The notes under the pieces are model-generated. The model was not told the origin of the DNA. It saw only the letters and a list, made by a program, of their open reading frames with translations, and made no database searches. This document shows, in pieces, positions 36,947-51,722 of a stretch of 64,000 nucleotides of DNA (position 1 is its first letter; each line of letters starts with the position of its first letter). Position numbers and translations under genes: made by a program. This stretch comes from a phage, in NCBI GenBank assembly GCA_010671865.1, contig GCA_010671865.1_4083.1. One strand, given 5' to 3'.

Positions 36947-37201
36947 TCAACGTGATATTAGTTTTATTTTTTTATTGTATTGTTGGTGTTCATATAGATT
37001 AATTTTTCCAGTACTCTCAATTACTATTCTATTGTTAGTGTCTACATCGATAACACGTAGTTTCCCGTTGCTTAACTTCCTGGGTAATAGACTACCATTA
37101 ATAAACTCATTAGCAAGCTGTACGGCCTTTGTGATGATTCTCTGTGGTGCTTTATAGTGTACCCGCAAGATATTATCTTTAGATAGTTGTACCTTCATCA
37201 T
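36947..37201 (-). CDS. hypothetical protein
   Basis: 84-aa ORF. Confidence 0.5.
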   Translation of the reverse strand: MMKVQLSKDNILRVHYKAPQRIITKAVQLANEFINGSLLPRKLSNGKLRVIDVDTNNRIVIESTGKINLYEHQQYNKKIKLISR

Positions 37202-37214
37202 TTTAGTTTATCCT

Positions 37215-37243
37215 ATAAAAAAAGGCGGGAACTGAACCCGCCG
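37215..37243 (-). terminator. intrinsic terminator
   Basis: minus strand GGCGGGTTCAGTTCCCGCC hairpin followed by TTTTTTT; downstream of 37266..37661. Confidence 0.6.
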
Positions 37244-37265
37244 TGTTGTTAGTACTGCAAAGTTT

Positions 37266-37661
37266 TTAGATAACCTGGCGGCGTTTACTGTATACTGTTA
37301 CACGGTTTCCTTTACGGTCATGACGGATCTCTTTCTGGTTACGAATCAGTTCACTTGGACGCTTAAGGTTTGCCAGGTGATCCGCGTGAGTCCATGCATT
37401 TGCGTTAACTGTAACTTCAATATCAGAACCTTTCAAAAAGTCATCTTGAGCGTTCAGTACTTCAGCCAGTTCTTGAGCTTGCTTTAGTTCTGCTTCAGTA
37501 AGTACAGGCTCAGGTGAATTCACAATATCAGAGATCTCTTTGAACTGTACCGCCCAGCGTTGTCCTTTCGGTGCATCTTTGCCCATGTCTTTAAATGTTT
37601 CACCTTCTTCACGAGCAACGATGCGAGCTTGTTCACGGGTAGCGAAGAATTTAGTAATCAT
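37266..37661 (-). CDS. hypothetical protein (paralog of 49170..49436)
   Basis: track ORF trimmed to MITKFFATREQ; shares FATREQARI...FKDMG...DRKGNRVTVY with 49170..49436. Confidence 0.55.
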   Translation of the reverse strand: MITKFFATREQARIVAREEGETFKDMGKDAPKGQRWAVQFKEISDIVNSPEPVLTEAELKQAQELAEVLNAQDDFLKGSDIEVTVNANAWTHADHLANLKRPSELIRNQKEIRHDRKGNRVTVYSKRRQVI

Positions 37662-37760
37662 GGTGTACATCCTATTAGTTAAGTTAATTAGTACTACAAG
37701 TTAGAGTCTATTATAAAGTACTATCTGGGCAATGTCAAATAGTACTTTAAATGGATTCTA

Positions 37761-38084
37761 TTACATGTCTTTTTTACGTTTTACATCGTAGTAACGAACT
37801 GTAATTTCTTTGTTGATCTCATCCTCAATTCTGTGTAGTACTTTCTCTTTCGGGTTGAAACCTATTACAGTTTCTTTAATGATCTCCAAGCCCGTGTATT
37901 CGCCTTGTGTACCGTAACCGTAAGTAAAGGTTTCATGTCCCAGGTCTTCCCAGCGGTCACCAATCAATGCAGACACGTAGCATGAGTGGTAAGTATTGCC
38001 GTGGCTATCAGTCCACCGATTAACTTTAATGTCAAAGGAAGTTACAATTTTCATTTCTACTTTCTGGGCAAGGATCATAGTCAT
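37761..38084 (-). CDS. hypothetical protein (paralog of 43890..44213)
   Basis: 107-aa ORF; shares RWTDSHGNTYHSC...FTYGY...RKKD with 43890..44213. Confidence 0.6.
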   Translation of the reverse strand: MTMILAQKVEMKIVTSFDIKVNRWTDSHGNTYHSCYVSALIGDRWEDLGHETFTYGYGTQGEYTGLEIIKETVIGFNPKEKVLHRIEDEINKEITVRYYDVKRKKDM

Positions 38085-38170
38085 TTTAATTTCTCTCTTT
38101 TTGTTAGGAAGGGAACCATTCCCCTCACTTGATGTAAACTATTATACAGTACTAAGATACTTTGTCAATA
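38085..38170 (-). promoter_or_regulatory. promoter plus leader hairpin cassette
   Basis: TTGACA-16-TATAAT, hairpin GGGGAATGGTTCCC; approximate. Confidence 0.5.
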
Positions 38171-38171
38171 C

Positions 38172-38447
38172 TTAAGTATTGTAAATGTCGTGAATAGTGA
38201 TAAAGTTTTTACGACCGTAAACATGTAAATCAGTATCAATGTAGTGCTTATCAAGTACATCCTCGACGCTTAAAGCCGTGTCGTGAATATCTTCATAGAA
38301 TTGTGGATCTACAATCTTACTTAAATCATCCGGCGTTAACTTATCATTGAGCCATTGCACCGCCTGGATATCTGCATCACGTTTCCAGTCTTCCAGGTTA
38401 GTAGTCAGTACTTGCTCGATTTCGTTAGCTGTCAGTAGAATCCGCAT
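38172..38447 (-). CDS. hypothetical protein
   Basis: 91-aa ORF. Confidence 0.55.
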   Translation of the reverse strand: MRILLTANEIEQVLTTNLEDWKRDADIQAVQWLNDKLTPDDLSKIVDPQFYEDIHDTALSVEDVLDKHYIDTDLHVYGRKNFITIHDIYNT

Positions 38448-38528
38448 TTTAATTTCTCTCTTTGTTAGGTGGGGAACTATTCCCCACTTGATGTAAAATA
38501 TTATACAGTACTAAAAACTATTGTCAAA
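38448..38528 (-). promoter_or_regulatory. promoter plus leader hairpin cassette
   Basis: TTGACA-16-TATAAT, hairpin GTGGGGAATAGTTCCCCAC; approximate. Confidence 0.5.
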
Positions 38529-38536
38529 CTATTTTA

Positions 38537-38737
38537 TCAAATTGTTTCCCATTTCATGTTACCCGCTTTACGCTGTGAAACAGGAATAAACATGTTATTA
38601 ATGTTACTAATATAACCGACCTGTAAGTCACGCTGTGAACCATACGCCCGACTTGCTGCATTTTTAGCACCGCGTTCTGATTTATAAACGCCGCTGGATA
38701 CTGTAAAGCCTACTACACCGAAAGTAAAATGTTTCAT
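38537..38737 (-). CDS. hypothetical protein
   Basis: 66-aa ORF; long leader with tandem promoters. Confidence 0.5.
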   Translation of the reverse strand: MKHFTFGVVGFTVSSGVYKSERGAKNAASRAYGSQRDLQVGYISNINNMFIPVSQRKAGNMKWETI

Positions 38738-39020
38738 TTTGTATTCCTCTTTGTGGTTGATGTAAGTATTATACTCGTTTAATTTCTATTGTCAAACTAT
38801 TTTATCAGGGGAGGTTTTCGTATGTCTTACTCCTGGACTACTTAACGGGGTTACTTATTTCGTTCCCCGTCCTGATGTAAAACATTATACTTGATTCTAA
38901 GTACAATGCAAGTACTTTTTAAAAATAGTTTTCAGTACTTGATAGTACTAGCCACCAGCAAACAATAGATACATTTATGCACCCTGTGGGCTGATTTGTT
39001 TCTATGCGTATATAATAGCA

Positions 39021-39049
39021 AAGGGACTGACCGGAGTCAATCCCTTTTT
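39021..39049 (-). terminator. bidirectional intrinsic terminator (repeated element, copy 3)
   Basis: hairpin AAGGGACTGACCGGAGTCAATCCCTT plus T-run. Confidence 0.55.
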
Positions 39050-39058
39050 CAATTATTT

Positions 39059-39208
39059 TTAAACTTGTTTCGGGTTGCGATAGGTGATAGCGTTCGGGTA
39101 CATTTGTTTAATGTTATTCCATGCCTGGTTAACATTGTAACCACTTGAGCGAATCAGTTGGTTACTACCGACACCTTGAAACACTACTTCGAATAAGAAT
39201 TCTTTCAT
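39059..39208 (-). CDS. hypothetical small protein (49 aa)
   Basis: hand-translated MKEFLFEVVFQGVGSNQLIRSSGYNVNQAWNNIKQMYPNAITYRNPKQV; GAGGTG RBS; approximate. Confidence 0.4.
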   Translation of the reverse strand: MKEFLFEVVFQGVGSNQLIRSSGYNVNQAWNNIKQMYPNAITYRNPKQV

Positions 39209-39378
39209 GCTTTCACCTCGCTATCTGCTTTACCTTTACGCCAGGACATTACTAATTGTTCGCGTTGCCATAAGTCGAGTGATACAAAAAGTTTTGCGGT
39301 ATCACTTTTAGGATACTCGCCAGTAGTACCTAACCGATAAAACAGATCTTTCAGTACTGATAATTCTACTTGAATCAT
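39205..39378 (-). CDS. hypothetical small protein (57 aa)
   Basis: hand-translated MIQVELSVLKDLFYRLGTTGEYPKSDTAKLFVSLDLWQREQLVMSWRKGKADSEVKA; AGGAG RBS; ATGA overlap downstream; approximate. Confidence 0.4.
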   Translation of the reverse strand: MIQVELSVLKDLFYRLGTTGEYPKSDTAKLFVSLDLWQREQLVMSWRKGKADSEVKA

Positions 39379-39467
39379 TTTATTACTCCTGATTGCGTTA
39401 ATACTTCTACTATTGCATGAATGATCATAAGTACAGCTAAAACAATAATCATCGGATTCATTTGCAT
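39375..39467 (-). CDS. hypothetical small hydrophobic peptide (~30 aa)
   Basis: rough hand translation MQMNPMIIVLAVLMIIHAIVEVLTQSGVIK; AGGAG RBS; coordinates and sequence approximate. Confidence 0.3.
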   Translation of the reverse strand: MQMNPMIIVLAVLMIIHAIVEVLTQSGVIK

Positions 39468-39484
39468 AAGCTGTACTCCTTATA

Positions 39485-39697
39485 TTAATCTTTCAGCCAA
39501 TGATCCTGAATGAATTTTTCGCCGGAACCTTGCTGCATTGATTGTAACAGACGTTCACGATGAGCGGCGGCGAATTGCTCAGTACTATGCGTTACGCCAG
39601 GCTGATAACGTGATACCCCATCCGGTCCGATGTATTGTACATCCCACGGTTTTTCGTTAGTATCAGACCATTTACGAACGATTAGTTGACCTTGCAT
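39485..39697 (-). CDS. hypothetical protein
   Basis: 70-aa ORF; GAGGAAAG RBS. Confidence 0.55.
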   Translation of the reverse strand: MQGQLIVRKWSDTNEKPWDVQYIGPDGVSRYQPGVTHSTEQFAAAHRERLLQSMQQGSGEKFIQDHWLKD

Positions 39698-39775
39698 TTT
39701 TCTTTCCTCTCAGTGGGGAGAATCATTTCTCCCCTTCATGTAACTTATTATACAGTACTAGATTATCTTGTCAAT
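39698..39775 (-). promoter_or_regulatory. promoter plus leader hairpin cassette
   Basis: TTGACA-16-TATAAT, hairpin GGGGAGAAATGATTCTCCCC; approximate. Confidence 0.5.
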
Positions 39776-39780
39776 AGTTT

Positions 39781-40104
39781 TTATTCACCTTGTTTGAATT
39801 TAGTTTTCTCCATTGATTCCATGATTGCAACCAATACGCTGTGGATCTCGCTTAACGCGGAATCACTGAAAGCATTAATGAATAGTCGATCATTCTCGCG
39901 AATATTTTTAATGTACTTTTCAGCAGTAGTTGCGAATTCATTCAACGGTAGATCAAATGCTTTATCCCATGATGGATGGCGTAATTGTAACAGTACTGGA
40001 TTATCACGATCACCAGGGGAAAACGTACCAGTGATGAAACATACGCCCGGAATACTTTCGAACTGGCAACGGACTTCCTTTGTGATAGTAGTATGAATGT
40101 ACAT
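39781..40104 (-). CDS. hypothetical protein
   Basis: 107-aa ORF; GAGGA RBS. Confidence 0.55.
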   Translation of the reverse strand: MYIHTTITKEVRCQFESIPGVCFITGTFSPGDRDNPVLLQLRHPSWDKAFDLPLNEFATTAEKYIKNIRENDRLFINAFSDSALSEIHSVLVAIMESMEKTKFKQGE

Positions 40105-40131
40105 TTATTGTTATCCTCTATTAAATTAATA

Positions 40132-40326
40132 TTACAGTTTATGAATCAATTCTTTATCTAAGCGATAGCGTACATTATTAATAGTAACGGCATTGTTTTT
40201 AATGCTACGCTGTACAGGTCCACCAGCAATAACAAATGTTGCTTTATTACCCCGAACAATGATAGCACTTCCAGGATTACCGAAATCATCTTGTACTAAA
40301 ATACTTGATAAGTTTTCCATTTTCAT
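40132..40326 (-). CDS. hypothetical protein
   Basis: 64-aa ORF; true start may be the second Met (MENLSS) by RBS spacing. Confidence 0.5.
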   Translation of the reverse strand: MKMENLSSILVQDDFGNPGSAIIVRGNKATFVIAGGPVQRSIKNNAVTINNVRYRLDKELIHKL

Positions 40327-40401
40327 TTCCTCTTAGTAGGGGAAGATGTTTCCCCTTGATGTAAGTACTATAACACTACTGGATAGTACTGTCAATACTT
40401 T

Positions 40402-40659
40402 TTATCTCATAGATCTATGCCAACAATTACGCGGGGGACGTTTAAAAGTACTATCATGATCCTCCTGGCAAGTTATGCAGTACTTACATCCCTTAACAGC
40501 CCGGCGGCGATTCTCAGGGATTTTATCGCCACAGTCGAGGCAATGTATCAGTGATTCTATTTGTGCGTTAATTTGCTTTCTAGCGTGGTTTACGGCGGCC
40601 TGAATCACTGCGTTAATCTCGTCTTGTTCGGCCCCGTCTTTCGCGAATCCTACAGCCAT
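40402..40659 (-). CDS. DksA/TraR-family C4 zinc-finger protein
   Basis: 85-aa ORF with C-x2-C-x17-C-x2-C and hallmark CLDCGDKIPENRRRAVKG...CITCQ. Confidence 0.6.
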   Translation of the reverse strand: MAVGFAKDGAEQDEINAVIQAAVNHARKQINAQIESLIHCLDCGDKIPENRRRAVKGCKYCITCQEDHDSTFKRPPRNCWHRSMR

Positions 40660-40856
40660 TATTTTAACCTTTTTCTATCATTAATTAATGCTTTCAGTAC
40701 TATACTAATAACTTGCAATGATTCATCAATGACTATAAAATTATTTTCTTTCATTAGATGATAGTTACCATTGATATTATATTCTAACGAGTACTGTTTA
40801 CGTTTAATTTTTGATAATGTTTCTATTTGTTTTTGTACTGATTTCATGCTAATCAT
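40659..40856 (-). CDS. hypothetical protein
   Basis: 65-aa ORF; 1-nt stop/start overlap with 40402..40659. Confidence 0.5.
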   Translation of the reverse strand: MISMKSVQKQIETLSKIKRKQYSLEYNINGNYHLMKENNFIVIDESLQVISIVLKALINDRKRLK

Positions 40857-40961
40857 TGTTAAACGTCCTGTAACGCATTCTAACGAGATAAACGGTTTAG
40901 TACTGGCATTGTATAGGGTAATGAATTAAAGCCCACCAGCGTTAACCAGTGGGCTATAATC

Positions 40962-41105
40962 TTACATCTTGCGGATAATCTTAACAGTATCTTTCACCGA
41001 TTTACCGTTTTGCTGACATTGTTCGATCATCGCGTATTGTTCTGCGGTCAGATCCTCGCCAGTTTTTGCCAGTACTGCATCGATGAATGAATCTAGTGCG
41101 ATCAT
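40962..41105 (-). CDS. hypothetical small protein (~47 aa)
   Basis: rough hand translation MIALDSFIDAVLAKTGEDLTAEQYAMIEQCQQNGKSVKDTVKIIRKM; approximate. Confidence 0.3.
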   Translation of the reverse strand: MIALDSFIDAVLAKTGEDLTAEQYAMIEQCQQNGKSVKDTVKIIRKM

Positions 41106-41204
41106 TTTGTTTCTCTCTTAGGTTAAGTTAACTACTGTTTATAAAACTTATTATACAGTACTATCAAACTATGTCAATATCTTTAATAGTACTGGTAATA
41201 TATT

Positions 41205-41447
41205 TTAGCGGTAGTCGTCGTATGCTTTATTCACCTGTCGAATGTAACTTTCAAAGGCTTCGTCTACCGTTTCATACTCCCGAACATAATCACCATAGGA
41301 AACTACATACATCCCTTTTTGATCTTCAAACGTCATGATGATAGAATCCAGGCCGATGATTTCAGTTTTTGCGATGATAGCCATTTTTAATTCCTTAGTA
41401 GTGTAGTTGATAAAACTTATTATGCCAGTACTATCAATCTTTGTCAA
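41205..41447 (-). CDS. hypothetical protein
   Basis: 80-aa ORF; promoter TTGACA-17-CATAAT without hairpin. Confidence 0.55.
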   Translation of the reverse strand: MTKIDSTGIISFINYTTKELKMAIIAKTEIIGLDSIIMTFEDQKGMYVVSYGDYVREYETVDEAFESYIRQVNKAYDDYR

Positions 41448-41466
41448 TAGTACTGTGATAATATTT

Positions 41467-41679
41467 TTAGTTAATGATAGTCAGTGTAAAATTGTAATCC
41501 CCTGCCTGGTATAGTACTTTGTCGCCGAACGTACCAACACGTTTCATATTGCAATAGATACCCATAACACTTTTTACATCTTTGATATTCCGAACGCCAG
41601 TGATATCCTTGTTGAAATTTTCATGATCAGAAAATAAAACTTGTTTTGCATTTTTCAGTACAGTGCAGATATTAGCCAT
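41467..41679 (-). CDS. hypothetical protein
   Basis: 70-aa ORF. Confidence 0.55.
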   Translation of the reverse strand: MANICTVLKNAKQVLFSDHENFNKDITGVRNIKDVKSVMGIYCNMKRVGTFGDKVLYQAGDYNFTLTIIN

Positions 41680-41762
41680 TTTGTTTTCTCTTTGTTAGTG
41701 GGGAGAATCATTTCTCCCCTTCATGTAACTTATTATACAGTACTATAATCTATTGTCAAACT
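41680..41762 (-). promoter_or_regulatory. promoter plus leader hairpin cassette
   Basis: TTGACA-16-TATAAT, hairpin GGGGAGAAATGATTCTCCCC; approximate. Confidence 0.5.
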
Positions 41763-41773
41763 ATTTTTTAATA

Positions 41774-42115
41774 TTATTCAAAATCTTCTGGACCGGACTG
41801 ATAATCATCTTCACCGTATGCACTTTCTAACTTCTCGCCAGTGTGATCATCAGTTAGTGAGTCATCCTCATAGTTCACGTCTACGCCTACAATGTAAAAC
41901 TGGCTATCGTCTGGATCATTGAAATTAATTTTCTGAATGTTTACAATAACGGTATTGATGCCCAGGACACCGCCATCAGCAGTTACAAAGTACTGATAGT
42001 TTTCACAACCGCCTGAATTGAAACCGTAATTAATTTCGGCCCGACCATCATTTAAACGCAGTACCTGGGCGATGATTTCGTTTTCAAAGTTAGATTGAGC
42101 AATTGAGATAGTCAT
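41774..42115 (-). CDS. hypothetical protein (acidic C-terminus)
   Basis: 113-aa ORF; C-terminal DDHTGEKLESAYGEDDYQSGPEDFE. Confidence 0.55.
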   Translation of the reverse strand: MTISIAQSNFENEIIAQVLRLNDGRAEINYGFNSGGCENYQYFVTADGGVLGINTVIVNIQKINFNDPDDSQFYIVGVDVNYEDDSLTDDHTGEKLESAYGEDDYQSGPEDFE

Positions 42116-42200
42116 GATTCGTTTCCTTATTACCAGGGGAAACCATTTCCCCTTGCGATGTAAAACATTATACGCTTATTGAGATAGTTTGCAAGTACTT
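42116..42200 (-). promoter_or_regulatory. promoter plus leader hairpin cassette
   Basis: TTGCAA-16-TATAAT-GTTTTACATC, hairpin GGGGAAATGGTTTCCCC, then TGGTAATAAGGAAAC RBS; approximate. Confidence 0.5.
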
Positions 42201-42296
42201 TTTAAAAATAGTTTTCAGTACTCAATACTTATATAATAGATACACTTATGCACCCTGTGGGCTAGTGAGCTATCTCTCAATGAATATATAATAGCA

Positions 42297-42327
42297 AAAT
42301 GGCTGACCGGAGTCAACCACTTTTTTT
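42297..42327 (-). terminator. bidirectional intrinsic terminator (repeated element, copy 4, with compensatory stem changes)
   Basis: hairpin TGGCTGAC-CGGA-GTCAACCA plus T-run; stem differs from copies 1-3 by paired substitutions. Confidence 0.55.
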
Positions 42328-42464
42328 CATTTATTTTTAGCTTTTAGAATCGCCGCCTTTCGTGTCATTCCTTGTTTGATGTACTCCTTTACTTTCGCTT
42401 TACGTGCTTTCGCTTTATCTGCTTTCGTTTTAGGAGTACTGTAAATTATACCGTTAGGATTCAT
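42327..42464 (-). CDS. hypothetical small lysine-rich basic protein (45 aa)
   Basis: hand-translated codon by codon: MNPNGIIYSTPKTKADKAKARKAKVKEYIKQGMTRKAAILKAKNK; approximate coordinates. Confidence 0.4.
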   Translation of the reverse strand: MNPNGIIYSTPKTKADKAKARKAKVKEYIKQGMTRKAAILKAKNK

Positions 42465-42554
42465 TTAAATCACCATAAAGAATAGATAGGTTACTAACAA
42501 TGCCGCGATCAATGCACCGACCAGGGCCGAACTGTAATAAGCCAATGATTTCAT
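42465..42554 (-). CDS. hypothetical small hydrophobic peptide (~29 aa)
   Basis: rough hand translation MKSLAYYSSALVGALIAALLVTYLFFMVI; ATGA overlap with upstream ORF; approximate. Confidence 0.3.
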   Translation of the reverse strand: MKSLAYYSSALVGALIAALLVTYLFFMVI

Positions 42555-42703
42555 TTTTTAGCCTGAAAATAGTGTTTAATTTGAGCGGCGGTCAGTGCAC
42601 AATTACGCAGGAAGTTTTCTGTATAACTGCGTCGAGTACTGAAAGAAAATTGACCTTTGCCGTTACCGATAGTAACATCAAACCGAGCATTATATTGTTT
42701 CAT
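42551..42703 (-). CDS. hypothetical small protein (~50 aa)
   Basis: rough hand translation MKQYNARFDVTIGNGKGQFSF...; AGGAG RBS; approximate. Confidence 0.35.
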   Translation of the reverse strand: MKQYNARFDVTIGNGKGQFSFSTRRSYTENFLRNCALTAAQIKHYFQAKK

Positions 42704-42817
42704 TTTGTTTCTCCTGATAGTGGGGAGTACTATTTCTCCCCTTCATGTAAAACATTATACAGTACTGAAAACTAATTGCAAGTATTATTTTTTAGATTTA
42801 CGCAAACTTTCTACCAT

Positions 42818-42931
42818 CTCAGGAGTAAGGCCCGGCGGGTAGGAAACCACTTCATCAACGAAACGTAAAGGGAATACCCCAGCGAAAGGTGAACATGCTT
42901 TCTTAGTATTACTCTTTTTTGATGCTTTCAT
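42818..42931 (-). CDS. hypothetical small protein (~37 aa)
   Basis: hand-translated MKASKKSNTKKACSPFAGVFPLRFVDEVVSLPAGPYS; AAGGAA RBS; own promoter/hairpin; approximate. Confidence 0.3.
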
Positions 42932-43000
42932 TTCATATTCCTTAATTAGTGGGGAGTACTATTTCTCCCCTTCATGTAAAACATTATACAGTACTGAAAA

Positions 43001-43210
43001 CTAATTGCAAGTACTATTTGAAAGTAAATGCTCATACGCTGCATTAACTACATTTTCAATAACCGACTGTACAGAAAGATCCCCCACGTCCTGGCTATAG
43101 TAGAAATTGCTTACAGTGGTGTCATCGTATGCAAATACTTTACCAGGTACGGCATCAATCACATACATATTAACCTTTAAGATGTCGATCTTATCCTGTA
43201 CAGTAAGCAT
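43001..43210 (-). CDS. hypothetical protein
   Basis: 69-aa ORF. Confidence 0.55.
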   Translation of the reverse strand: MLTVQDKIDILKVNMYVIDAVPGKVFAYDDTTVSNFYYSQDVGDLSVQSVIENVVNAAYEHLLSNSTCN

Positions 43211-43215
43211 ATTAA

Positions 43216-43488
43216 TTAACCTTTTAAGTACTGGCTTAAGTAGTCTTTTTGTTCTTCGGTGATTGCAGTCATCTTCCCTAGTACTGGATTGATGATATAA
43301 TCCCCTGTAACGTCCTGTACTGCGTTTTCAGGCTGTTTAACGGCAGGGGTAGCCATAGCCATAGCCTGGACTTGTTCCACACTGTAACGCTCATAAAGGC
43401 GGCATTCTTCCGGTGTTAACATAGCATCAGTACGCTTCATCGGTTTAATGATGCTTTCGATCTCATTCAGTACTTGATTAACGTTCAT
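43216..43488 (-). CDS. hypothetical protein
   Basis: 90-aa ORF. Confidence 0.55.
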   Translation of the reverse strand: MNVNQVLNEIESIIKPMKRTDAMLTPEECRLYERYSVEQVQAMAMATPAVKQPENAVQDVTGDYIINPVLGKMTAITEEQKDYLSQYLKG

Positions 43489-43539
43489 GGTATAATCCCC
43501 AATATAAGCGGCCTAAATCGACCGCTAACGATGTTTTGA

Positions 43540-43809
43540 TTAATAGGTGTATGGTTGACGCTCAAACAATGATTGTACGCTGTACGCCCCGCTAATGGGC
43601 TTCGCTGGTAAATCAATTTTATATTGCTCACGCTTAAAGATAATAAAACGGCAATTGTTTTTAACATCAAAATTGATTGAACGTTCCAGGAGTTTACCAT
43701 CGTGAACAAATACAAGATAACCACTTGGTACTTGTTTTGTAGTACTGGTTGCAACCATAGACCGACGAACATGTGTACCTGCATCGATTAAAGTACTGAT
43801 ATTTTTCAT
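43540..43809 (-). CDS. hypothetical protein
   Basis: 89-aa ORF; preferred over overlapping alternative frame 43485..43784. Confidence 0.5.
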   Translation of the reverse strand: MKNISTLIDAGTHVRRSMVATSTTKQVPSGYLVFVHDGKLLERSINFDVKNNCRFIIFKREQYKIDLPAKPISGAYSVQSLFERQPYTY

Positions 43810-43889
43810 TTTACTTTCCTCTTAAGTTGATTTAATTTCTTTCCCCTATGCAGACACTATATCAAAGTATCTGCATAAAGTAAAGCTAA

Positions 43890-44213
43890 TTAAAGATCTT
43901 TTTTGCGTTTAACATTCTGTACAGTACAATGCAACGGGATATTAAGATCATTGCACAAACGATAGAGGGAGGTTTCAACAGTATCAAGCCCGTCTACTGA
44001 TTCCTTTAAGAGTGATACCGCCGTTTGTTGATATGCATCCTCATAGCCATAAGTAAATGATTCAACCGCCAGATCATTCAAGCCGTTATCCAGTTCAACG
44101 CTTACATGACAAGAATGATAAGTATTGCCATATGAATCAGTCCAACGTTTACCGTCAACATTGATTGCATGGATTGCAGCCAGGGAAACGGTGTTGATGA
44201 TAGTTTTAGCCAT
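43890..44213 (-). CDS. hypothetical protein (paralog of 37761..38084)
   Basis: 107-aa ORF; shares RWTDSYGNTYHSC...FTYGY...KRKKDL. Confidence 0.6.
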   Translation of the reverse strand: MAKTIINTVSLAAIHAINVDGKRWTDSYGNTYHSCHVSVELDNGLNDLAVESFTYGYEDAYQQTAVSLLKESVDGLDTVETSLYRLCNDLNIPLHCTVQNVKRKKDL

Positions 44214-44299
44214 TTTAGTATTCCTTAAATTAATATGTGTCGTCTTGATAAAATCTATTATGCCAGTACTATCAAACTATGTCAATAGTACTGTGATAA

Positions 44300-44448
44300 T
44301 ATTTTTTACTTACTTTTTGCTTTCTTTGCTGCTTCCACCTGGTCGGCCCATTCTTTACCCCATACTTGTAAATTATAATGGTACTGGCAAAGTGCAACGC
44401 CCCGCTTTAAACCCGTAATAGATTTCTGACCACATTGACAAGTTTTCA
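44300..44448 (-). CDS. hypothetical small Cys-containing protein (~47 aa)
   Basis: rough hand translation MKTCQCGQKSITGLKRGVALCQYHYNLQVWGKEWADQVEAAKKAKSK; approximate. Confidence 0.3.
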
Positions 44449-44534
44449 TATTAGTTTCCTTGTAGTGGGGAGAATCATTTCTCCCCTTGATGTAATGTAT
44501 TATACTTTATTCGATTTACTTTGCAAGTACTTTT

Positions 44535-44762
44535 TTAATTTAATTCATCCAGGCAAAGGATACGTTCCACACCAAGATCCGTTAAACTAATGGTCGGTAC
44601 TTGATAGGTTTCAATGTATGCTACACTTGCCCACTGACCGAACTCATTAACGGCCCAGGTATTCATTGCATTTTGCAATTCCACACCTTCCTTGTTGGTA
44701 ATGACTGCAACTACTTGTTCGTTGCCAGTAGTACCAGATACGCGAGTAATGATAATAGCCAT
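44535..44762 (-). CDS. hypothetical protein
   Basis: 75-aa ORF; promoter TTGACA-17-CATAAT. Confidence 0.55.
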   Translation of the reverse strand: MAIIITRVSGTTGNEQVVAVITNKEGVELQNAMNTWAVNEFGQWASVAYIETYQVPTISLTDLGVERILCLDELN

Positions 44763-44837
44763 TTTTTAATTCCTATTCAGTAGTTGATGTATGTATTATG
44801 TCAGTACTTAAAACTATTGTCAAACTATTTTTTAAAG

Positions 44838-44985
44838 TTTATCAATGATTGATGCCGTTTCATTGATAGTCTTGCCGTGTTTTGCACACGCGATAACTGC
44901 TTTAAATTCCTTTGATGACCAATCTTTCTTGCTGCATACTGACATTACTTGTAAAGTAAAACAATCCAGTTCATAAGTATTCATC
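44838..44985 (-). CDS. hypothetical small protein (~49 aa)
   Basis: rough hand translation MNTYELDCFTLQVMSVCSKKDWSSKEFKAVIACAKHGKTINETASIIDKL; approximate. Confidence 0.3.
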
Positions 44986-45209
44986 TTTAAATCCTCAGTT
45001 AGTTAAGGTGTCTCGCCTTGATGTAATTAATTATACGCTAATCTCTTAATCGTGCAAGTACTTTTTATTACTTTTTGCAAAATACTTTAAACGCTCTCAA
45101 TCGCATTCTAACGGCCTTCACGCCACCAGCTAGGGCAATGCATCAGATAATCAGTTTAATGCGTTAGAATCGATTCTATCGGGTGCTAGTGGACTGGTAA
45201 ACGATAGAT

Positions 45210-45238
45210 ACAAAAAAGCCCACTGTTTAAGGTGGGCT
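45210..45238 (-). terminator. intrinsic terminator
   Basis: minus strand AGCCCACCTTAAACAGTGGGCT hairpin followed by TTTTTTG; downstream of 45260..45742. Confidence 0.6.
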
Positions 45239-45259
45239 AGTGATTCAGTACTTTAATTG

Positions 45260-45742
45260 TTATGCTTCAACTTTGCGATGAGCTTCGATCCATTCCTCGC
45301 GAGTCATACCGCTTTCTTTGATAGCGTCCAGTACTACCGCAATGCAGTTACCGCGTACAGGAATCATATGTTCTTCCCCGTTATCAAGTACTACAGTAAC
45401 ACGTTCTTGAATCCATTTTTTAGGTTTAGATTCTGGCTTATCTTCACCATACTTAACCGCCAGGGCTTTATGTGCCATTTCTACAACTACTTCCAGATCC
45501 AATCCAGACACCGCCGCCTGGATACTTTCGATTGTTGCTTGTAGTTCTGCTTCACGGGCTTTTTTCTGTTCTTCCAGTTCTGCTACCTTTTTGGCTTGCA
45601 GTTCTTTAGCTTCACTGTACGCAATGTTAAAATTGTTGCGTACTGCTTTCATGGTATCGTTATCCAGGTCAGCCAACAATTCAGCAGCAATAACAGTATC
45701 GTTTGAAATCAGTGCTTTCAGGAATGATTTTACATTAGCCAT
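45260..45742 (-). CDS. hypothetical protein with predicted coiled-coil segment
   Basis: track ORF trimmed to MANVKSF (GAGGA RBS); heptad-like KELQAKKVAELEEQKKAREAELQATIESIQAA. Confidence 0.55.
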   Translation of the reverse strand: MANVKSFLKALISNDTVIAAELLADLDNDTMKAVRNNFNIAYSEAKELQAKKVAELEEQKKAREAELQATIESIQAAVSGLDLEVVVEMAHKALAVKYGEDKPESKPKKWIQERVTVVLDNGEEHMIPVRGNCIAVVLDAIKESGMTREEWIEAHRKVEA

Positions 45743-45939
45743 TTTATAAATCCTCAATTAAAGTTTAGTTTACGTTTATTAGTGTATCAAAGTTTTATCG
45801 ACGTGTCCAGTTTTTCGTTCGACTTACTGGCGGTCTACTTAGTGCTCCCCGTCTTGATGTAATACATTCTACGCCTTTTTGTGGTAATGTCAACTACTAT
45901 TTTAAAACTATTTTTAAAGTATGCAGTACTACGATACTA

Positions 45940-45973
45940 CAAAAACAAAAAAGCCCACTGTTTAAGGTGGGCT
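45940..45973 (-). terminator. intrinsic terminator (same hairpin sequence as 45210..45238)
   Basis: identical AGCCCACtgtttaaGGTGGGCT hairpin with A/T runs; downstream of 45991..46290. Confidence 0.6.
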
Positions 45974-45990
45974 AGTGATTCAGTACTATA

Positions 45991-46290
45991 TTATAAACAG
46001 TTAATTACTCCGGTGTGCGTTACTTTCTCAGTATCCATAACAGTGACCGAACCGCGTTTAGTACTTGCATCGTAATAAATTGTCGTGCTACCTTTTTCGT
46101 CTTCTTCATGGAACGGCCCGTTTTTAAATGCTTCTGGCTGGATCTCTAAATCCTTTAAAACAATCTCGCCAGTACTTTCATTGGTCATCGCTACAGTGCA
46201 CTGAATGAATTTTTCACTACTTACATCTAACGACGCATTAACAGCGAAAGAGGAAACAGATAAAGCCAGGGCGATGATTGCAACTTTCAT
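45991..46290 (-). CDS. hypothetical secreted/periplasmic protein
   Basis: 99-aa ORF; N-terminal signal-peptide-like MKVAIIALALSVSSFAVNA with A-x-A cleavage context. Confidence 0.5.
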   Translation of the reverse strand: MKVAIIALALSVSSFAVNASLDVSSEKFIQCTVAMTNESTGEIVLKDLEIQPEAFKNGPFHEEDEKGSTTIYYDASTKRGSVTVMDTEKVTHTGVINCL

Positions 46291-46375
46291 TAGTATATCC
46301 TTAGTTACCAGGGGGGAACCGCTCCCCCTTGCGATGTAAAATATTGTACAGTACTAAAAACTAATTGCAAGTACT
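46291..46375 (-). promoter_or_regulatory. promoter plus leader hairpin cassette
   Basis: TTGCAA-16-TGTACAATAT, hairpin GGGGGAGCGGTTCCCCCC then TGGTAACTAAGGA RBS; approximate. Confidence 0.45.
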
Positions 46376-46612
46376 TTATGATTTTTTATAAAACATTTCG
46401 GCAGTGATATTTTTACCCGTTGGTTGTACTTTATCCAGAATTTTTTGATGCCCTGGCCGTCCAAATGAATATGATCCGTAAACCGTAAACCAGTAGTTAC
46501 CCTCAGTGTTTACATGTACAGCACAATAGGGAACGCCCCGCGATTCATCACTAGTAAAGTGTGCTACCGTTCCCGTTACATTCGAAGACGTTGATTTGAT
46601 TTGTTCGACCAT
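46376..46612 (-). CDS. hypothetical protein
   Basis: 78-aa ORF. Confidence 0.55.
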   Translation of the reverse strand: MVEQIKSTSSNVTGTVAHFTSDESRGVPYCAVHVNTEGNYWFTVYGSYSFGRPGHQKILDKVQPTGKNITAEMFYKKS

Positions 46613-46720
46613 TTTCTTATTCCTTAGTTACCAGGGGAACCGCTCCCCCTATGCAAAACATTATACGCGTTTAAAAACTAATTGCAAGTATTTTAATAAA
46701 AAGTATTTGAAAAATAATTG

Positions 46721-46749
46721 TTGACAAGTGCATCCAGTACTGGCATAAT
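46721..46749 (+). promoter_or_regulatory. candidate plus-strand promoter (antisense or small-RNA transcript)
   Basis: TTGACA-17 nt-CATAAT on plus strand in a minus-strand gene region; a palindromic hairpin lies ~80 nt downstream. Confidence 0.4.
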
Positions 46750-46819
46750 TACTACATCAAGACGAAACAGTCACTAACCCACCGGGTGCCGAGATCCGTC
46801 TATTAAATGATTCAGTACT

Positions 46820-46848
46820 GAAAAAAGAAAGGGGATCAATTGATCCCC
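46820..46848. terminator. bidirectional terminator (perfect palindrome)
   Basis: GGGGATCAATTGATCCCC flanked by A-run and T-rich run; downstream of minus gene 46855..47076. Confidence 0.55.
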
Positions 46849-46854
46849 TCGTTG

Positions 46855-47076
46855 TTATTTTGTAAGGTATAAACAGAAGTCACCTTTATTTGCTACGCCG
46901 CCAGTGTAACGCGAGGAATAGTTAGAAACGTCCTGGACTTCTGCTATTACCAGGGTATCATCATTCAATTCGTCGCAGAAGCAAACGGCTGGATCTTGTA
47001 CGCCGATTTTGTCGGCATGTTCCCGCATAGATTTAACCAGTGCTTCCAGTTGGGAAAGAGTAGTGATATTAGCCAT
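46855..47076 (-). CDS. hypothetical protein
   Basis: track ORF trimmed to MANITTL (GAGGAAA RBS). Confidence 0.55.
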   Translation of the reverse strand: MANITTLSQLEALVKSMREHADKIGVQDPAVCFCDELNDDTLVIAEVQDVSNYSSRYTGGVANKGDFCLYLTK

Positions 47077-47160
47077 TTTATTTTCCTCATTACCAGGGAG
47101 AACCATTTCTCCCTTGATGTAAACTATTATACAGTACTGAAAACTAATTGCAAGTACTTT
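47077..47160 (-). promoter_or_regulatory. promoter plus leader hairpin cassette
   Basis: TTGCAA-16-TATAAT, hairpin GGGAGAAATGGTTCTCCC then TGGTAATGAGGAAA RBS; approximate. Confidence 0.5.
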
Positions 47161-47161
47161 T

Positions 47162-47422
47162 TCAATATTGTTTGTCGTCGTCTTCCTCGATGAATTGACC
47201 GACGAAATGATCTACTTTCGCTTTGAGGCTTTTATAATCTTCTTCTACTTCCGTTAAACGTTCCTGGTAGTATTCCAGTGCCTCAAGATACGCCGCCTCA
47301 GCAGTTTTTGCACGCATAGCTAAATTCATTCCACGCGTTTCATCAAATAGCCAATAACCATCGGTGCAATGACTGATAGATAATGACTTGCTTAGTACTG
47401 TATAGTTAATTACTTTACTCAT
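47162..47422 (-). CDS. hypothetical protein
   Basis: track ORF trimmed to MSKVINY; upstream part reads through the leader hairpin. Confidence 0.5.
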   Translation of the reverse strand: MSKVINYTVLSKSLSISHCTDGYWLFDETRGMNLAMRAKTAEAAYLEALEYYQERLTEVEEDYKSLKAKVDHFVGQFIEEDDDKQY

Positions 47423-47480
47423 TAGATAAACCCTCAATAAAGGCGGGAACCATTCCCCGCCATTGTTACAGTACTGAATA

Positions 47481-47720
47481 TTACATTCCAACCATTGCAG
47501 CACGGATCGCAGTAGTGCTATACTTAAAGCCGTCCGGCGTTGTAGTAGTACCGTTGGCTTTTAATCTGCGGTACATGCATTCCGCTGCAATATCTTTAGT
47601 TCTACTTTGTGCGATACAACTTTGTGCAAGCCGATACAATGACTCACCGTTATTAATCCATAAGGAAACATTCCAATGAGTTTTGTTTTTGTGCCCGTTG
47701 TAAGTTTTAGTACTAGCCAT
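47481..47720 (-). CDS. hypothetical protein (mosaic paralog of 49523..49762)
   Basis: 79-aa ORF; conserved GHKNKTHWNVSLWINN and TPDGFKYSTTAIRAAMVGM termini, divergent centre. Confidence 0.6.
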   Translation of the reverse strand: MASTKTYNGHKNKTHWNVSLWINNGESLYRLAQSCIAQSRTKDIAAECMYRRLKANGTTTTPDGFKYSTTAIRAAMVGM

Positions 47721-47812
47721 TTTTTTTAATCCTCGTTTGAGCGGGGAACCATTCCCCGCCTCGATATAAAGTATTATACGCTTTTAAACTTAGTTTGCAA
47801 GTACTTTTTAAA

Positions 47813-48424
47813 TTAATATTCGATTGATTCTACTACACCATCAATGACATTGAATTGATATTCGTTACCCTCAATCAGTGCCGTAATGTTTTCAGTAGTG
47901 AATTGATCCTCATATGCATTCTCTAAATCACGGTACAACTTGCGGGATAATTCACGAATAGTTTCAGTGAGTAGTTCCTCAAGCTCATTAACTAACGTTT
48001 CTTGTTTTGCGGTTAAATCAGTGTAAGCCGATTCAATGTACCCGCTTACAGTATTCTCATGCGAGTAGTGGGAGTGAGAACGCTTTACACTCATCGGCAA
48101 ATCATCTTCATTCAGCAGGTGACGGATTGAGCGATACTTAGTTAATGCTCTTACCTTGCGTAAAAACTTCACTGCGTCAACGTGGTCAGTACTGATTGAT
48201 GCACCGTCACCCTGGGACCAAAAACCACTGAATTGTATTTCAGCGTCATTAATGCCATATTCCGGCAATACTGTTTCTTTATAGTGTTCAATTTCACTTT
48301 CAGAAAAATAATCGTCGTTTGAGTTTTTTTCACGTTCCCGAACTAGTTCGATAGCTGACGTTTTTTGTTCTGCGTTCAATTCAGAAAAAGCCATAACATA
48401 AGTAGTAGTAGTGATAGTTTTCAT
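47813..48424 (-). CDS. hypothetical protein
   Basis: 203-aa ORF; GAGGG RBS; long leader with tandem promoters. Confidence 0.55.
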   Translation of the reverse strand: MKTITTTTYVMAFSELNAEQKTSAIELVREREKNSNDDYFSESEIEHYKETVLPEYGINDAEIQFSGFWSQGDGASISTDHVDAVKFLRKVRALTKYRSIRHLLNEDDLPMSVKRSHSHYSHENTVSGYIESAYTDLTAKQETLVNELEELLTETIRELSRKLYRDLENAYEDQFTTENITALIEGNEYQFNVIDGVVESIEY

Positions 48425-48647
48425 TTTGTAACCCTCATTCAGTAGTTTATGTAAGTATTATACGCTTTTAAAAACAATTGTCAAACTATTTTATCAGGGG
48501 AGTTTTTCGTGTGCCTTACTCCTGGGCTACTTAACGGGAAGTTACTTATTTCGTTCCCCGTCCTGATGTAAAACATTATACGCCTTTAAACATAGTTTGC
48601 AAGTACTTTTTAAAAATAGTTTTCAGTACTGAATAGTAAAAAAAAGT

Positions 48648-48676
48648 ATTGACAGCATTATCAAGTACTGGCATAA
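48648..48676 (+). promoter_or_regulatory. candidate plus-strand promoter
   Basis: TTGACA-17 nt-CATAAT on plus strand; same AGTACTGGCATAAT core as 46721..46749. Confidence 0.4.
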
Positions 48677-48851
48677 TATACCCCATGACAACAGCTAACC
48701 CACCGGGTGCACAATTGTAACTATACTAAACTACTTTTTCTATAGATACACTCCCGCACCCTATGGGCTACGGCTTATCTGCCAATGAATACATTATGCC
48801 AGTACTGACAAAATAAGTCAATACCGGCAATTGTAAAGATTTGTAAACTGC

Positions 48852-49082
48852 TTATACTGCAATCGCGTCCAGGCTATAATAATAATAAGTGCCGTATTGG
48901 TGTACTTTATTACCTTTTATTTCAGTACTGAATGAATCCGAACGGTTTGCATATGATGTTAATTTAAAGTACTTTGATTTGCTGATACGTTGCCATACAC
49001 CGCAGATCCGCTGTAAGTAAGTAGTTTTATTCGTGGTAGTATCTTTTACGGTTTTAACTTCAGTCATATACATATTAGTCAT
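48852..49082 (-). CDS. hypothetical protein
   Basis: 76-aa ORF. Confidence 0.5.
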   Translation of the reverse strand: MTNMYMTEVKTVKDTTTNKTTYLQRICGVWQRISKSKYFKLTSYANRSDSFSTEIKGNKVHQYGTYYYYSLDAIAV

Positions 49083-49169
49083 TTTTATTACTCCAGGTTA
49101 TAGGCGGGAAGTGTTCCCGCTCTCGATGTAAAACATTATACGCCATTAAACATAGTTTGCAAGTACTTT

Positions 49170-49436
49170 TTATTCAAGTACTGCAATCTTTTTAGTACGG
49201 TACACGGTCACGCGGTTGCCCTTTCGGTCGAGCTTTATTTCTACCACTCGACGCGATACACTATCGGGACTTTTTAACGCCGCTAACCAGTACTGTAATG
49301 ATCTGGCGGTACTACGCTTTACAATGGCCCAACGTTCACCACTTGCCGATCCCGCTCCCATATCTTTAAACGTTGCCCCGTCCTGGCGTGCGGCGATCCG
49401 AGCTTGTTCACGCGTCGCAAAATACTTAATATTCAT
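49170..49436 (-). CDS. hypothetical protein (paralog of 37266..37661)
   Basis: track ORF trimmed to MNIKYFATREQ; shares FATREQARI...FKDMG...DRKGNRVTVY. Confidence 0.55.
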   Translation of the reverse strand: MNIKYFATREQARIAARQDGATFKDMGAGSASGERWAIVKRSTARSLQYWLAALKSPDSVSRRVVEIKLDRKGNRVTVYRTKKIAVLE

Positions 49437-49522
49437 GCTGTTACCCTTATCGTTGGTGTATGAATAAAACACTATTATAAAGTACTATCGCAAAAAAATG
49501 ATAGTACTTTAAATAAATTCTA

Positions 49523-49762
49523 TTACATTCCAACCATCGCCGCACGGATCGCAGTAGTGCTATATTTGAATCCGTCCGGTGTTTTATCTTGTCCAGTCTG
49601 TTCTAAAAATAGCATCATATGACGGGCCGCATCATTGCGATTTGTGCTATCGTTAATAAAGTCCTGGGCCAACCGGTATAATGATTCATCGTTATTAATC
49701 CAAAGGCTTACATTCCAATGAGTTTTGTTTTTGTGACCTAAGAACATTTTTGATTTAGCCAT
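49523..49762 (-). CDS. hypothetical protein (mosaic paralog of 47481..47720)
   Basis: 79-aa ORF; identical C-terminal 19 aa and conserved N-terminal block. Confidence 0.6.
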   Translation of the reverse strand: MAKSKMFLGHKNKTHWNVSLWINNDESLYRLAQDFINDSTNRNDAARHMMLFLEQTGQDKTPDGFKYSTTAIRAAMVGM

Positions 49763-49857
49763 TTTTTTTTAATCCTCTTATATAGTGGGGAACTATTCCC
49801 CACCTGATAGAAAGTATTATACGCCTTTAAACTTACTTTGCAAGTACTTTATTAAAC

Positions 49858-50220
49858 TTATTCGTAAATCTTGCCACTGTCAGCCCATACCAGGAAACGA
49901 GGCATATTATCCCATGCATCTTGTTTTAAGTTTAAGCCGTGCAATACTTCTGTACTTTCCATTCCTGGTACTGGCTTGCTATACACTGCAAACATTTCGC
50001 CCATGTACTGATAAGCCATCGTTAAATCAGTCTGGATCATCTTATGGATCATTGCATCCAGCATTGCAGTAGCGGCGTACTGTTCACGCTTAAGCGGCAA
50101 CATTGCAATAAGTTCCCGATAAGCTGAAATGTGAATTTTTACCGTTTCTGCCGGAAGATCTTTCATCTCGTCGCGGAAGTTAACCAGGTTAGCAATAATT
50201 TTATTGATTTGAGTCGCCAT
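49858..50220 (-). CDS. hypothetical protein
   Basis: track ORF trimmed to MATQINK; upstream MFYIESG is promoter/hairpin read-through. Confidence 0.55.
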   Translation of the reverse strand: MATQINKIIANLVNFRDEMKDLPAETVKIHISAYRELIAMLPLKREQYAATAMLDAMIHKMIQTDLTMAYQYMGEMFAVYSKPVPGMESTEVLHGLNLKQDAWDNMPRFLVWADSGKIYE

Positions 50221-50300
50221 CGTTTTAATCTCTCTTAATGTGTAGCGGGAAGTGTTCCCGCTCTCGATGTAAAACATTATACGCTTTTAAACATAGTTTG
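50221..50300 (-). promoter_or_regulatory. promoter plus leader hairpin cassette
   Basis: TTGCAA-16-TATAAT-GTTTTACATC, hairpin GAGCGGGAACACTTCCCGC; approximate. Confidence 0.5.
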
Positions 50301-50557
50301 CAAGTACTTTCTACATGTACTTTTAAAATAGTTTTCTTTCTATATAGGAGTACTATTATTCAGTACTACCAACAACCAGGGGAACTATCTTTCAGTACTG
50401 AATCAACCAAATCACTACTACACCCCATAAAACGGCCTCAGACGCATTCTAACGCATTAATACACCTAAGCTATACATTTGCACCGCCACCAGCTAACCA
50501 GGGCTTTACAGACCGTTTAAACGCGTTAAATTATTTTCAATTATTTTGTTTTTAGCT

Positions 50558-50586
50558 ATTGACTCAGTACTAAAAAAGCGTATAAT
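50558..50586 (+). promoter_or_regulatory. candidate plus-strand promoter
   Basis: TTGACT-17 nt-TATAAT; downstream transcript start resembles that after 46721..46749 (TACTACAT-GACG-GA-AG...CCGAGATCCGTC). Confidence 0.4.
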
Positions 50587-51022
50587 TACTACATAGACGC
50601 GAGAAAGCGGATACCCCAGGGGGTGCCGAGATCCGTCCAAAATTCATAAAATTTAAAAAGAATACACTCCCGCACCCTAGCAGGTCAACGCACTTTCTCA
50701 GTACTGAATTATAGTACCATAGTACGGCCCAGGATAGCAAGCAAATTAATTAAAACTTTTTTCATCCAGGGTATTGCTTTATTTTTCCAGTACTGTATAA
50801 TAGTTCCATCAAGTCGAGAAAGACTCCAGCCCACCGGGTGCATAGTTACGCCCAAAATTCAGTACTGAAAAAATTTTTAAAAATATCCGTCCAGGCCGTT
50901 GACATTGCCCCCAGTTTATAAGATAATGATTCCAGATTCAGAAAAATCTAACTCCAGATACTGCGGGGAAACTATCCCCACGCGGTAGGGGAACTATTGG
51001 AAAAAACAAAATAAAATTTTGA

Positions 51023-51097
51023 TTTAGCCGTTTAGCCGTCCAAACGTCTAGCCATCCAGAAATCTAGCCGTTTAGCCGTCTAGATGGATAGCCATCT
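51023..51097. repeat. tandem octamer direct repeats (iteron-like), unit yTAGCCrT
   Basis: TTAGCCGT TTAGCCGT CCAAACGT CTAGCCAT CCAGAAAT CTAGCCGT TTAGCCGT CTAGATGG ATAGCCAT in strict 8-bp register. Confidence 0.6.
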
Positions 51098-51722
51098 TTA
51101 CTTCCAGACTTCTGGAGGGCTAGACATATCTACGTCCAAAATCCATCCAGGGTAACTACGCCCAAAATCCGTCAGTACTATACCATAGATCTATCTTTTG
51201 AAAGGGAGTATTCAGTACTGCCATCATAGCCCTCACTATGTTACCCTAGGAGGATGAAGACTATCATGTAGTACTGAATACTGTTAGAGGGAACCCACCA
51301 GCACAAGCTGGTGGCATAATGATTTAGATTAAAATCAGTACTGACACCATTCTGTTAATATCAGTACTGTTATTACGATTTTCATATGAGGTTCAAAAAG
51401 ATGTACCACCACAGGAGGAACTATCTTTTCTGTACTGTCTCACGACAGGAGGTAGAGTAAATGAATTGTTCGCAGCAACTCATCACCCTATGTAGAACAT
51501 TATACAGTACTGAATCATAATGTCAATAGCTTTCTTTCATTATTCAGTACTGATATTCTTGAGAACTACCCGACTACAAACATCATTATATCCCACAAAT
51601 CATAAACGTCCCAACGTAAATTTCAACTTTCGAAGATCCAACTTTTATTTCATAGGTACTCCAAAATTTTTAGGATCGAGATTTAGGATGGAGTACTAAC
51701 CAACTTTTTGCTGGAGCCTCAA

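Follow-up and report, generated by a model that had tools for sequence, protein, structure and literature searches.

A pair of DUF7249 paralogs with conserved ends and a divergent centre in an Asteriusvirus jumbo phage of Escherichia coli

Concerted evolution of paralogs by gene conversion is a general phenomenon. In the gp37 and gp38 adhesins of T-even phages, recombination between conserved glycine-rich motifs that flank hypervariable segments swaps specificity (Trojet et al. 2011, PMC3157838; Tetart et al. 1998 cited therein). T4-type phages also display a modular shuffling associated with PeSL (promoter-early stem-loop) elements, for which promoter and terminator activities and the formation of mini-circles have been demonstrated (Arbiol et al. 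2010, PMC2839356; Comeau et al. 2014, PMC4122927). Here, we analysed a stretch of 64,000 nucleotides of phage DNA (NCBI GenBank assembly GCA_010671865.1, contig GCA_010671865.1_4083.1; hereafter the window) which belongs to an Asteriusvirus (PBECO4/121Q/phAPEC6-like), an E. coli jumbo phage, and more particularly two paralogous genes of the DUF7249 family located in a region (47000-50300) that is 95-97% identical to the Asteriusvirus phages Turkey3, Ecwhy_1, SHEFM2K and phAPEC6. We consider it probable, with appreciable room for doubt, that this gene is modular, that its conserved arms recombine and that centres and short N-terminal tags reassort on them, the centre being a putative recognition surface.

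Both genes lie on the minus strand. Paralog B (47481..47720) and paralog A (49523..49762) each encode a 79-residue DUF7249 protein, with a type-B and a type-A centre respectively, the latter being the consensus type, common to rV5-like and phi92-like phages. The two proteins align without gaps (53/79 identical residues, E 3e-38). Both match Pfam PF23907 (DUF7249) well above its gathering threshold of 27 bits (B, 50.7 bits over residues 4-75; A, 45 bits over residues 5-75) as well as phrog_871 (E 6e-29 and 1e-29 for the two proteins), and both hold all the signature columns of the family (G9, W16-N-V-S-L-W21, N24, T61-P-D-G and A75), defined as those invariant in alignments of 72 and 68 sequences. 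An earlier note, made from the sequence alone, had reported that these proteins share GHKNKTHWNVSLWINN[G/D]ESLYRLAQ and an identical C-terminus of 19 residues (TPDGFKYSTTAIRAAMVGM), and both were found as claimed. It had also described the centres as completely different; they are indeed strongly divergent but not completely so, as 7 of the 27 residues between positions 34 and 60 are identical (I36, S39, A45, A46, M49, L53 and G57), against 96% identity over residues 9-33 and 61-79.

The gene may be divided into four putative modules, from the N- to the C-terminus: a tag (codons 1-8, predicted to be disordered), an N block (codons 9-33), a centre (codons 34-60) and a C block (codons 61-79). 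In B, the N block (47622..47696) encodes helix 1 and most of helix 2 of the predicted structure and is 81-89% identical to A at the nucleotide level, the centre of 81 nucleotides (47541..47621) is 41% identical (26% for the residues), and the C block (47484..47540), encoding a beta-bridge and helix 4, is 89-96% identical, with 19/19 residues conserved. The corresponding parts of A are at 49664..49738 (N block), 49583..49663 (centre, which carries the family majority residue at 23/27 positions) and 49526..49582 (C block), all on the minus strand like those of B.

Pairwise alignments and structure prediction thus place the variable segment at residues 34-60, and the divergence between A and B is not uniform: the proposed pattern of conserved termini and replaced centre holds for this pair at the nucleotide level, at the family level and across genomes. 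BLASTN aligned A and B in two blocks only (56 nucleotides at 87.5% and 57 nucleotides at 91.2%), leaving the centre unmatched. The centre accounts for 70-81% of the nucleotide differences between A and B; within class A, its share of the differences has a mean of 44% and a maximum of 58%, for 38% of the length, and the binomial probability of the A-B share is 1e-5 against the class mean and 0.024 against the class maximum, the centre being saturated. Indeed, relatives of the same class diverge evenly over the N block, centre and C block (0.91/0.90/0.82 identity for L002 and 0.85/0.79/0.84 for L012). When distant relatives are compared with A, their centres are 0.28-0.57 identical and the DNA of their termini, in which the same motifs are kept, only 0.55-0.71, so that the centre of B (0.41) is no nearer to A than are those of distant relatives.

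The same contrast is found throughout the family. Over 120 homologues, the N and C motifs are near invariant and the centre is variable, with a low entropy at positions 9-29 and 61-79 and a high entropy at positions 33-60. Considering the pairs of homologues whose termini are at least 93% identical, the identity of the centres follows a bimodal distribution, with 214 pairs in the range 0.1-0.4, 554 pairs in the range 0.6-1.0 and an empty interval from 0.4 to 0.6. In the large myoviruses of E. coli, at least six discrete centre classes are carried on near-identical termini, and several N-terminal tags also reassort on the conserved blocks. In the syntenic gene of rV5-like phages, the identity drops locally over the centre, while the flanks on either side keep 73-94% identity. 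Our search of the literature found no earlier description of this mosaic.

The structures predicted with AlphaFold 2 (AF2; predicted local distance difference test, pLDDT, of 83.5 for B and 89.9 for A) display the same four-helix fold, with helices at residues 10-24, 26-38, 42-56 and 69-77 in B and 13-24, 26-38, 42-56 and 69-76 in A, and a small beta-bridge at 60/66. The variable cassette corresponds to the last third of helix 2, the following loop, the whole of helix 3 and the next loop. The centre positions that are conserved in the family are spaced along one helix face, which we interpret as the buried core. Since I36, A45, A46, M49, L53 and G57, shared by A and B, are such helix-core positions, the two centres appear to be homologous rather than unrelated insertions. 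The non-core positions are replaced, and the net charge of the centre is -2.1 in A and +2.4 in B. According to these models, a kept core with an inverted surface charge would fit a recognition surface, and the swapping of specificity suggested by the earlier note is plausible from the sequences. No match was found by a profile search of PDB sequences (E up to 1), and no relative of this fold by searches of solved and viral structures.

The comparison of genomes shows how the termini are kept alike. In 9 further Asteriusvirus genomes, the two genes are found intact and in synteny; A is intact in 10/10 complete Asteriusvirus regions examined and B is syntenic in 9/10, and in the unverified record CMSTMSU only a truncated A fragment was found. 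In a nucleotide alignment of 11 related genomes, linked patches of the termini take the state of the other paralog in subsets of the genomes. Codons 18-20 of B read GTTTCCTTA in the window, Turkey3 and phAPEC6, and the A-type GTAAGCCTT in Ecwhy_1, WPEC5, BF17, WPEC3 and UE-S1. The C block of B includes A-type codons in UE-S1; conversely, A has a B-type GGC TTT AAG in its C block in PBECO4 and a B-type GCT GCA in Turkey3, phAPEC6 and G17. Synonymous variants of the C block are common to both paralogs and, among the variable sites of the termini, 22/26 have an allele common to both, with fixed differences at 4. In UE-S1, the synonymous differences between A and B amount to 7/28 for the termini and to 12/16 for the centre (P = 0.002). 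These switching patches and shared alleles demonstrate a short-tract gene conversion, acting in both directions, which keeps the termini of A and B alike.

Exchange also extends to other genera. Between the window A gene and the rV5-like allele L094, whose centre belongs to a different class, there are 0/10.3 synonymous differences in the N block (codons 9-29) and 9.5/13 in the C block, that is a proportion of synonymous differences (pS) of 0.73 (Fisher P = 0.0004 between the two blocks). In L096, found at the rV5-like slot, the N block and centre are of the A type, and the 5' untranslated region and the first 8 codons are of the B type, with 100% identity. Tags and centres violate the four-gamete test, as they are found in all four combinations, MAKSKMFL and MASTKTYN each occurring with A and B centres. 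Taken at the level of the family, these sequences show tags and centre cassettes reassorting among the large myoviruses of E. coli (Asteriusvirus, rV5-like and phi92-like phages); the swapping is visible in this wider gene pool and not within Asteriusvirus.

Inside the centre of A, we also observed that residues 37-39 switch as a block among Asteriusvirus genomes, between NDS and AAN, through six linked nucleotide changes. Both variants are present in the wider set of homologues, which suggests a micro-mosaicism inside the cassette itself.

If arms recombine and centres reassort, the following course may be proposed. Each paralog, with its own sigma70-like promoter and 5' hairpin, encodes a predicted four-helix DUF7249 protein, of which the N and C blocks encode the invariant scaffold. 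At the DNA level, these blocks are near-identical stretches of 55-75 nucleotides, which makes them candidate substrates for homologous recombination; E. coli large myoviruses infecting the same cell could exchange tags and centre cassettes through them, giving at least six centre types. The centre would act as the recognition surface, and the phage would possess an early factor for host takeover or anti-defence in two versions of different specificity. We would go further only with considerable reserve: it is a rather doubtful extension that DUF7249 proteins are widespread early effectors whose helix-3 surface is an exchangeable specificity cassette against variable host or defence targets, that the flanking blocks are conserved at the nucleotide level beyond the needs of the protein as built-in recombination arms, and that the acidic and basic specificities come from a pool common with rV5-like and phi92-like phages.

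Several points weigh against reassortment by recombining arms. In the window pair, the termini already show a high pS (0.45-0.62; 0.74 for the centre), and the difference between termini and centre is not significant (Fisher P = 0.21); the window alone is therefore no proof of recombination. All segments are short, with only 10-16 synonymous sites each. The two centres are orthologous alleles that remain stable among Asteriusvirus genomes, without any sign of ongoing swapping there. The donor DNA of the B centre was not recovered, the B-like homologue P0007 being without contig DNA. Invariant polar residues (N17, S19, N24, T61 and D63) are located in the termini, which may consequently be the functional site, the centre then being a tolerant or secondary surface. 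Finally, two metagenomic contigs, L095 and L097 (ERZ1755837 NODE_3680), which otherwise add to the evidence for the mosaic, carry hybrid genes with an A tag and a B centre, and L097 joins the upstream neighbour of A directly to the downstream neighbour of B, which implies a 2-kb deletion through A/B recombination if it is not an assembly chimera; both contigs are short, the coverage of L097 is 1.46, and they may be chimeras assembled across the repeated block.

These points have to be set against other ways of obtaining the same pattern. The B gene could have arisen in situ, from an A-type gene duplicated a moderately long time ago, with a subsequent fast adaptive divergence of helix 3 (omega >=1) and without any imported cassette, the termini being under strong purifying selection and occasionally converted. 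Such a neofunctionalisation would agree with the pS of the A-B termini (0.25-0.54), which resembles that of A against its rV5-like orthologues (0.46-0.54), so that a single divergence time could fit the termini; the centre is moreover the fastest-evolving part family-wide, the same core residues are kept in both centres, and both are stable within the genus. We nevertheless find it unlikely. The proportion of nonsynonymous differences (pN) in the A-B centre reaches 0.56, whereas it is only 0.17-0.23 for pairs within class A whose synonymous divergence is comparable or larger, and the bimodal distribution of centre identities lacks the intermediates. Furthermore, B-like centres are found in other lineages (67% identity for P0007, 56% for P0008, and 48% for P0112, in which the identity of the terminus is only 67%), distant relatives are slightly closer to the B centre (101) than to the A centre (56), and other centre classes occupy the same rV5-like syntenic slot between well conserved flanks.

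Plain differential constraint, with old paralogs that simply mirror the conservation profile of the family and no recombination, would account for the low entropy of positions 9-29 and 61-79 and the high entropy of positions 33-60, for the absence of significant synonymous heterogeneity in the window pair (P = 0.21), and for pairs 2 and 3 described below, which follow such a pattern. An early reading based on the window pair alone was of this kind (old divergence and purifying selection), and was revised after the multi-genome nucleotide alignment. This explanation is now largely refuted, and we give it a low probability: the termini of relatives that keep the motifs have 55-71% nucleotide identity, as against 81-96% between A and B; within a class, the centre DNA evolves about as fast as the termini (share of 0.44 for 38% of the length); linked patches are common to both paralogs; UE-S1 and the comparison of A with L094 both give a significant synonymous heterogeneity; and the four-gamete test is violated. 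A diversity-generating retroelement, or a similar system that hypermutates the centre specifically, would explain why some 81 nucleotides vary between sharp limits in a conserved gene, but appears extremely improbable. No template-repeat copy of either centre was found within the 64-kb window (in which reverse transcriptase was not scanned for), the centres are stable among the 11 genomes, and 59% of the centre positions differ with all four bases involved, which is far beyond an adenine-only mutagenesis.

The recombining-arm reading concerns the first pair only. Two further pairs in the window, all of whose genes are likewise on the minus strand, had been put forward as having the same organisation, and for both the paralogy is confirmed. 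The pair-2 proteins (37266..37670, 134 residues, and 49170..49436, 88 residues; both phrog_8127; E 1e-20) have in common an N-domain of about 40 residues, which also occurs in RaK2-like jumbo phages, and the motif DRKGNRVTVY, around an indel of 46 residues. In the shared blocks, most codons differ at the third position, which indicates an old divergence with a variable linker and no recent swap; the mosaic description fits this pair only loosely, and a recent cassette swap does not fit. A shared motif, GATAGTACTTTATAATAG, lies upstream of both pair-2 genes (49437-49495 and 37671-37730, minus strand) without a hairpin (fold z ~0), and may represent a second promoter class. The pair-3 proteins (37761..38084 and 43890..44213; 107 residues each, phrog_6246, a family found almost only in Asteriusvirus records) are 36% identical (E 2e-27), with motifs conserved at residues 23-37, about 51-57 and 100-106, and show no replaced centre; their synonymous sites have diverged, as expected of old paralogs. 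A single segmental duplication behind the three pairs was considered and rejected, as the gene orders differ.

The DUF7249 family is large, with 2988 clusters at 50% identity (E up to 1e-3) and 237 phage records, and occurs in jumbo, rV5-like, phi92-like and T7-like (Autographiviridae) phages. Among the phage records listed, Asteriusvirus-sized genomes have at least two copies (one in UB) and nearly all smaller phages have one. In unrelated phages, the gene is located in arrays of small open reading frames (ORFs) or in left-end early regions. The B gene is dispensable and accessory, since some strains lack it or have another gene in its place: in G17, its slot contains an unrelated 88-residue ORF behind the same promoter and hairpin, and in phage UB the absence of the promoter and the B gene is clean, each edge bearing an AGTACT motif. 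We infer that A and B are early genes, and that they encode an accessory protein for early host takeover or anti-defence, of which the helix-3 surface may set the partner specificity. DUF7249 was the sole domain found in 10 longer DUF7249-containing proteins checked for fusions, and no plasmid homologues were found. NCBIfam gave nothing, nor did Pfam for pairs 2 and 3 or the neighbouring genes; the literature search for DUF7249 returned no papers, and the phAPEC6 paper does not mention promoters or paralogs.

The two genes belong to an array of small ORFs on the minus strand, from about 32.8 to 51.5 kb. A repeated cassette of 70-100 nucleotides precedes most ORFs of the array (at least 18 copies between 32846 and 51535, minus strand) and consists successively of a promoter-like site (TTGCAA/TTGACA-16/17-TATAAT), a GGGGAA...TTCCCC hairpin and a ribosome-binding site; the same promoter-hairpin cassette is found upstream of the DUF7249 gene of rV5-like and phi92-like phages. 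For B, this upstream region (47740..47800, minus strand) comprises the promoter-like TTGCAA-16-TATAAT at 47800-47773 and a 5' GC hairpin at 47760-47740, with a folding free energy (dG) of -16.1 and z of -2.5; for A (49784..49843, minus strand), the promoter-like site is at 49843-49816 and the 5' GC hairpin at 49804-49784 (dG -17.2, z -3.1). Just downstream of B, a terminator-like copy of the same GC hairpin of about 20 nucleotides (47442..47461, minus strand) is followed by a T-run, so that B is bracketed by the same hairpin. Searches of the window detected no tRNA (ARAGORN) and no Rfam family, and an explanation by an RNA gene or tRNA was rejected accordingly.

Other repeats were observed in and around the array. 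CAGTACT...TTGTCAATA repeats, related to the motif upstream of the pair-2 genes, recur along it. A repeat of 95 nucleotides present in three copies (33399-33493, 35663-35757 and 38966-39060) ends in GCAAAGGGACTGACCGGAGTCAATCCCTTTTTT, a plus-strand terminator-like hairpin within this minus-strand gene array, and an associated motif, TAGATACACTCCTGCACCCTATGGG, occurs six times. At 51022-51109, a repeat with a period of 8 bp (GTTTAGCC / GTCTAGCC / ATCTAGCC) adjoins the place, at about 51-52 kb, where the genes change orientation and the GC skew is reversed; it looks like a set of iterons, and may correspond to an origin or a binding array. The composition of the window shows a step, from 29-34% GC in 1-26000 to 36-42% in the early-gene array (32000-51000), and the AT skew is strongly negative at 26-30 kb. 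Compared with phAPEC6, the window is 100% identical in protein at 37.3-38.1 kb and only 94.8% identical in DNA at 47-50.3 kb, where the closest genome is Turkey3 (97%); these identities, differing by region, indicate that the source genome is itself mosaic relative to the sequenced Asteriusviruses.

If the centre is indeed a recognition surface, DUF7249 would be a compact scaffold in which one helix bears an exchangeable specificity. Early or host-takeover genes would then use the design of tail-fibre adhesins, with conserved arms and a swappable cassette, as an intracellular counterpart of the swapping of adhesin hypervariable segments, and a handle would be gained on a large uncharacterised family of about 3000 clusters at 50% identity. 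As it stands, the locus provides a clean and well documented example, from the hyperplastic region of a phage, of mosaicism within a gene and of gene conversion between paralogs.

The comparison with described systems helps to place this pair. As in gp37 and gp38, the conserved motifs form the structural core, with the variable segment between them (according to the AF2 models and the conservation profile), and natural chimeras arise by exchanges in or near conserved motifs within a gene pool of related phages. Unlike these virion adhesins, DUF7249 is a helical protein of 79 residues that is probably intracellular and early, and has one variable cassette and an N-terminal tag instead of four hypervariable segments; a role of its centre in specificity is only plausible, a change of surface charge being the sole observation, and gene conversion also takes place between its two paralogs of the same genome. 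The array shares with the PeSL systems a hyperplastic-region layout of small ORFans, each behind a repeated sigma70-like promoter and GC stem-loop, and the gain, loss or replacement of whole cassettes between strains, as at the B slot in G17 and UB. However, PeSL elements swap whole genes between intergenic repeats, whereas the breakpoints of the first pair are inside the coding sequence, and the cassettes described here are in Asteriusvirus rather than T4-type phages, with putative promoters and terminators. With a diversity-generating retroelement target, the gene has in common a bounded variable region in a small conserved gene, but it differs by the lack of a template repeat in the window and of an adenine-specific pattern, and by its stable alleles. 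As in concerted evolution, short tracts are copied both ways between paralogs about 2 kb apart, polymorphisms are shared and the conversion stops where homology ends; here, it is limited to two flanks, the centre stays distinct and other phage genera are also involved in the exchange. The two DUF7249 genes are a well-supported new example of known phage gene mosaicism, useful but unsurprising to specialists.

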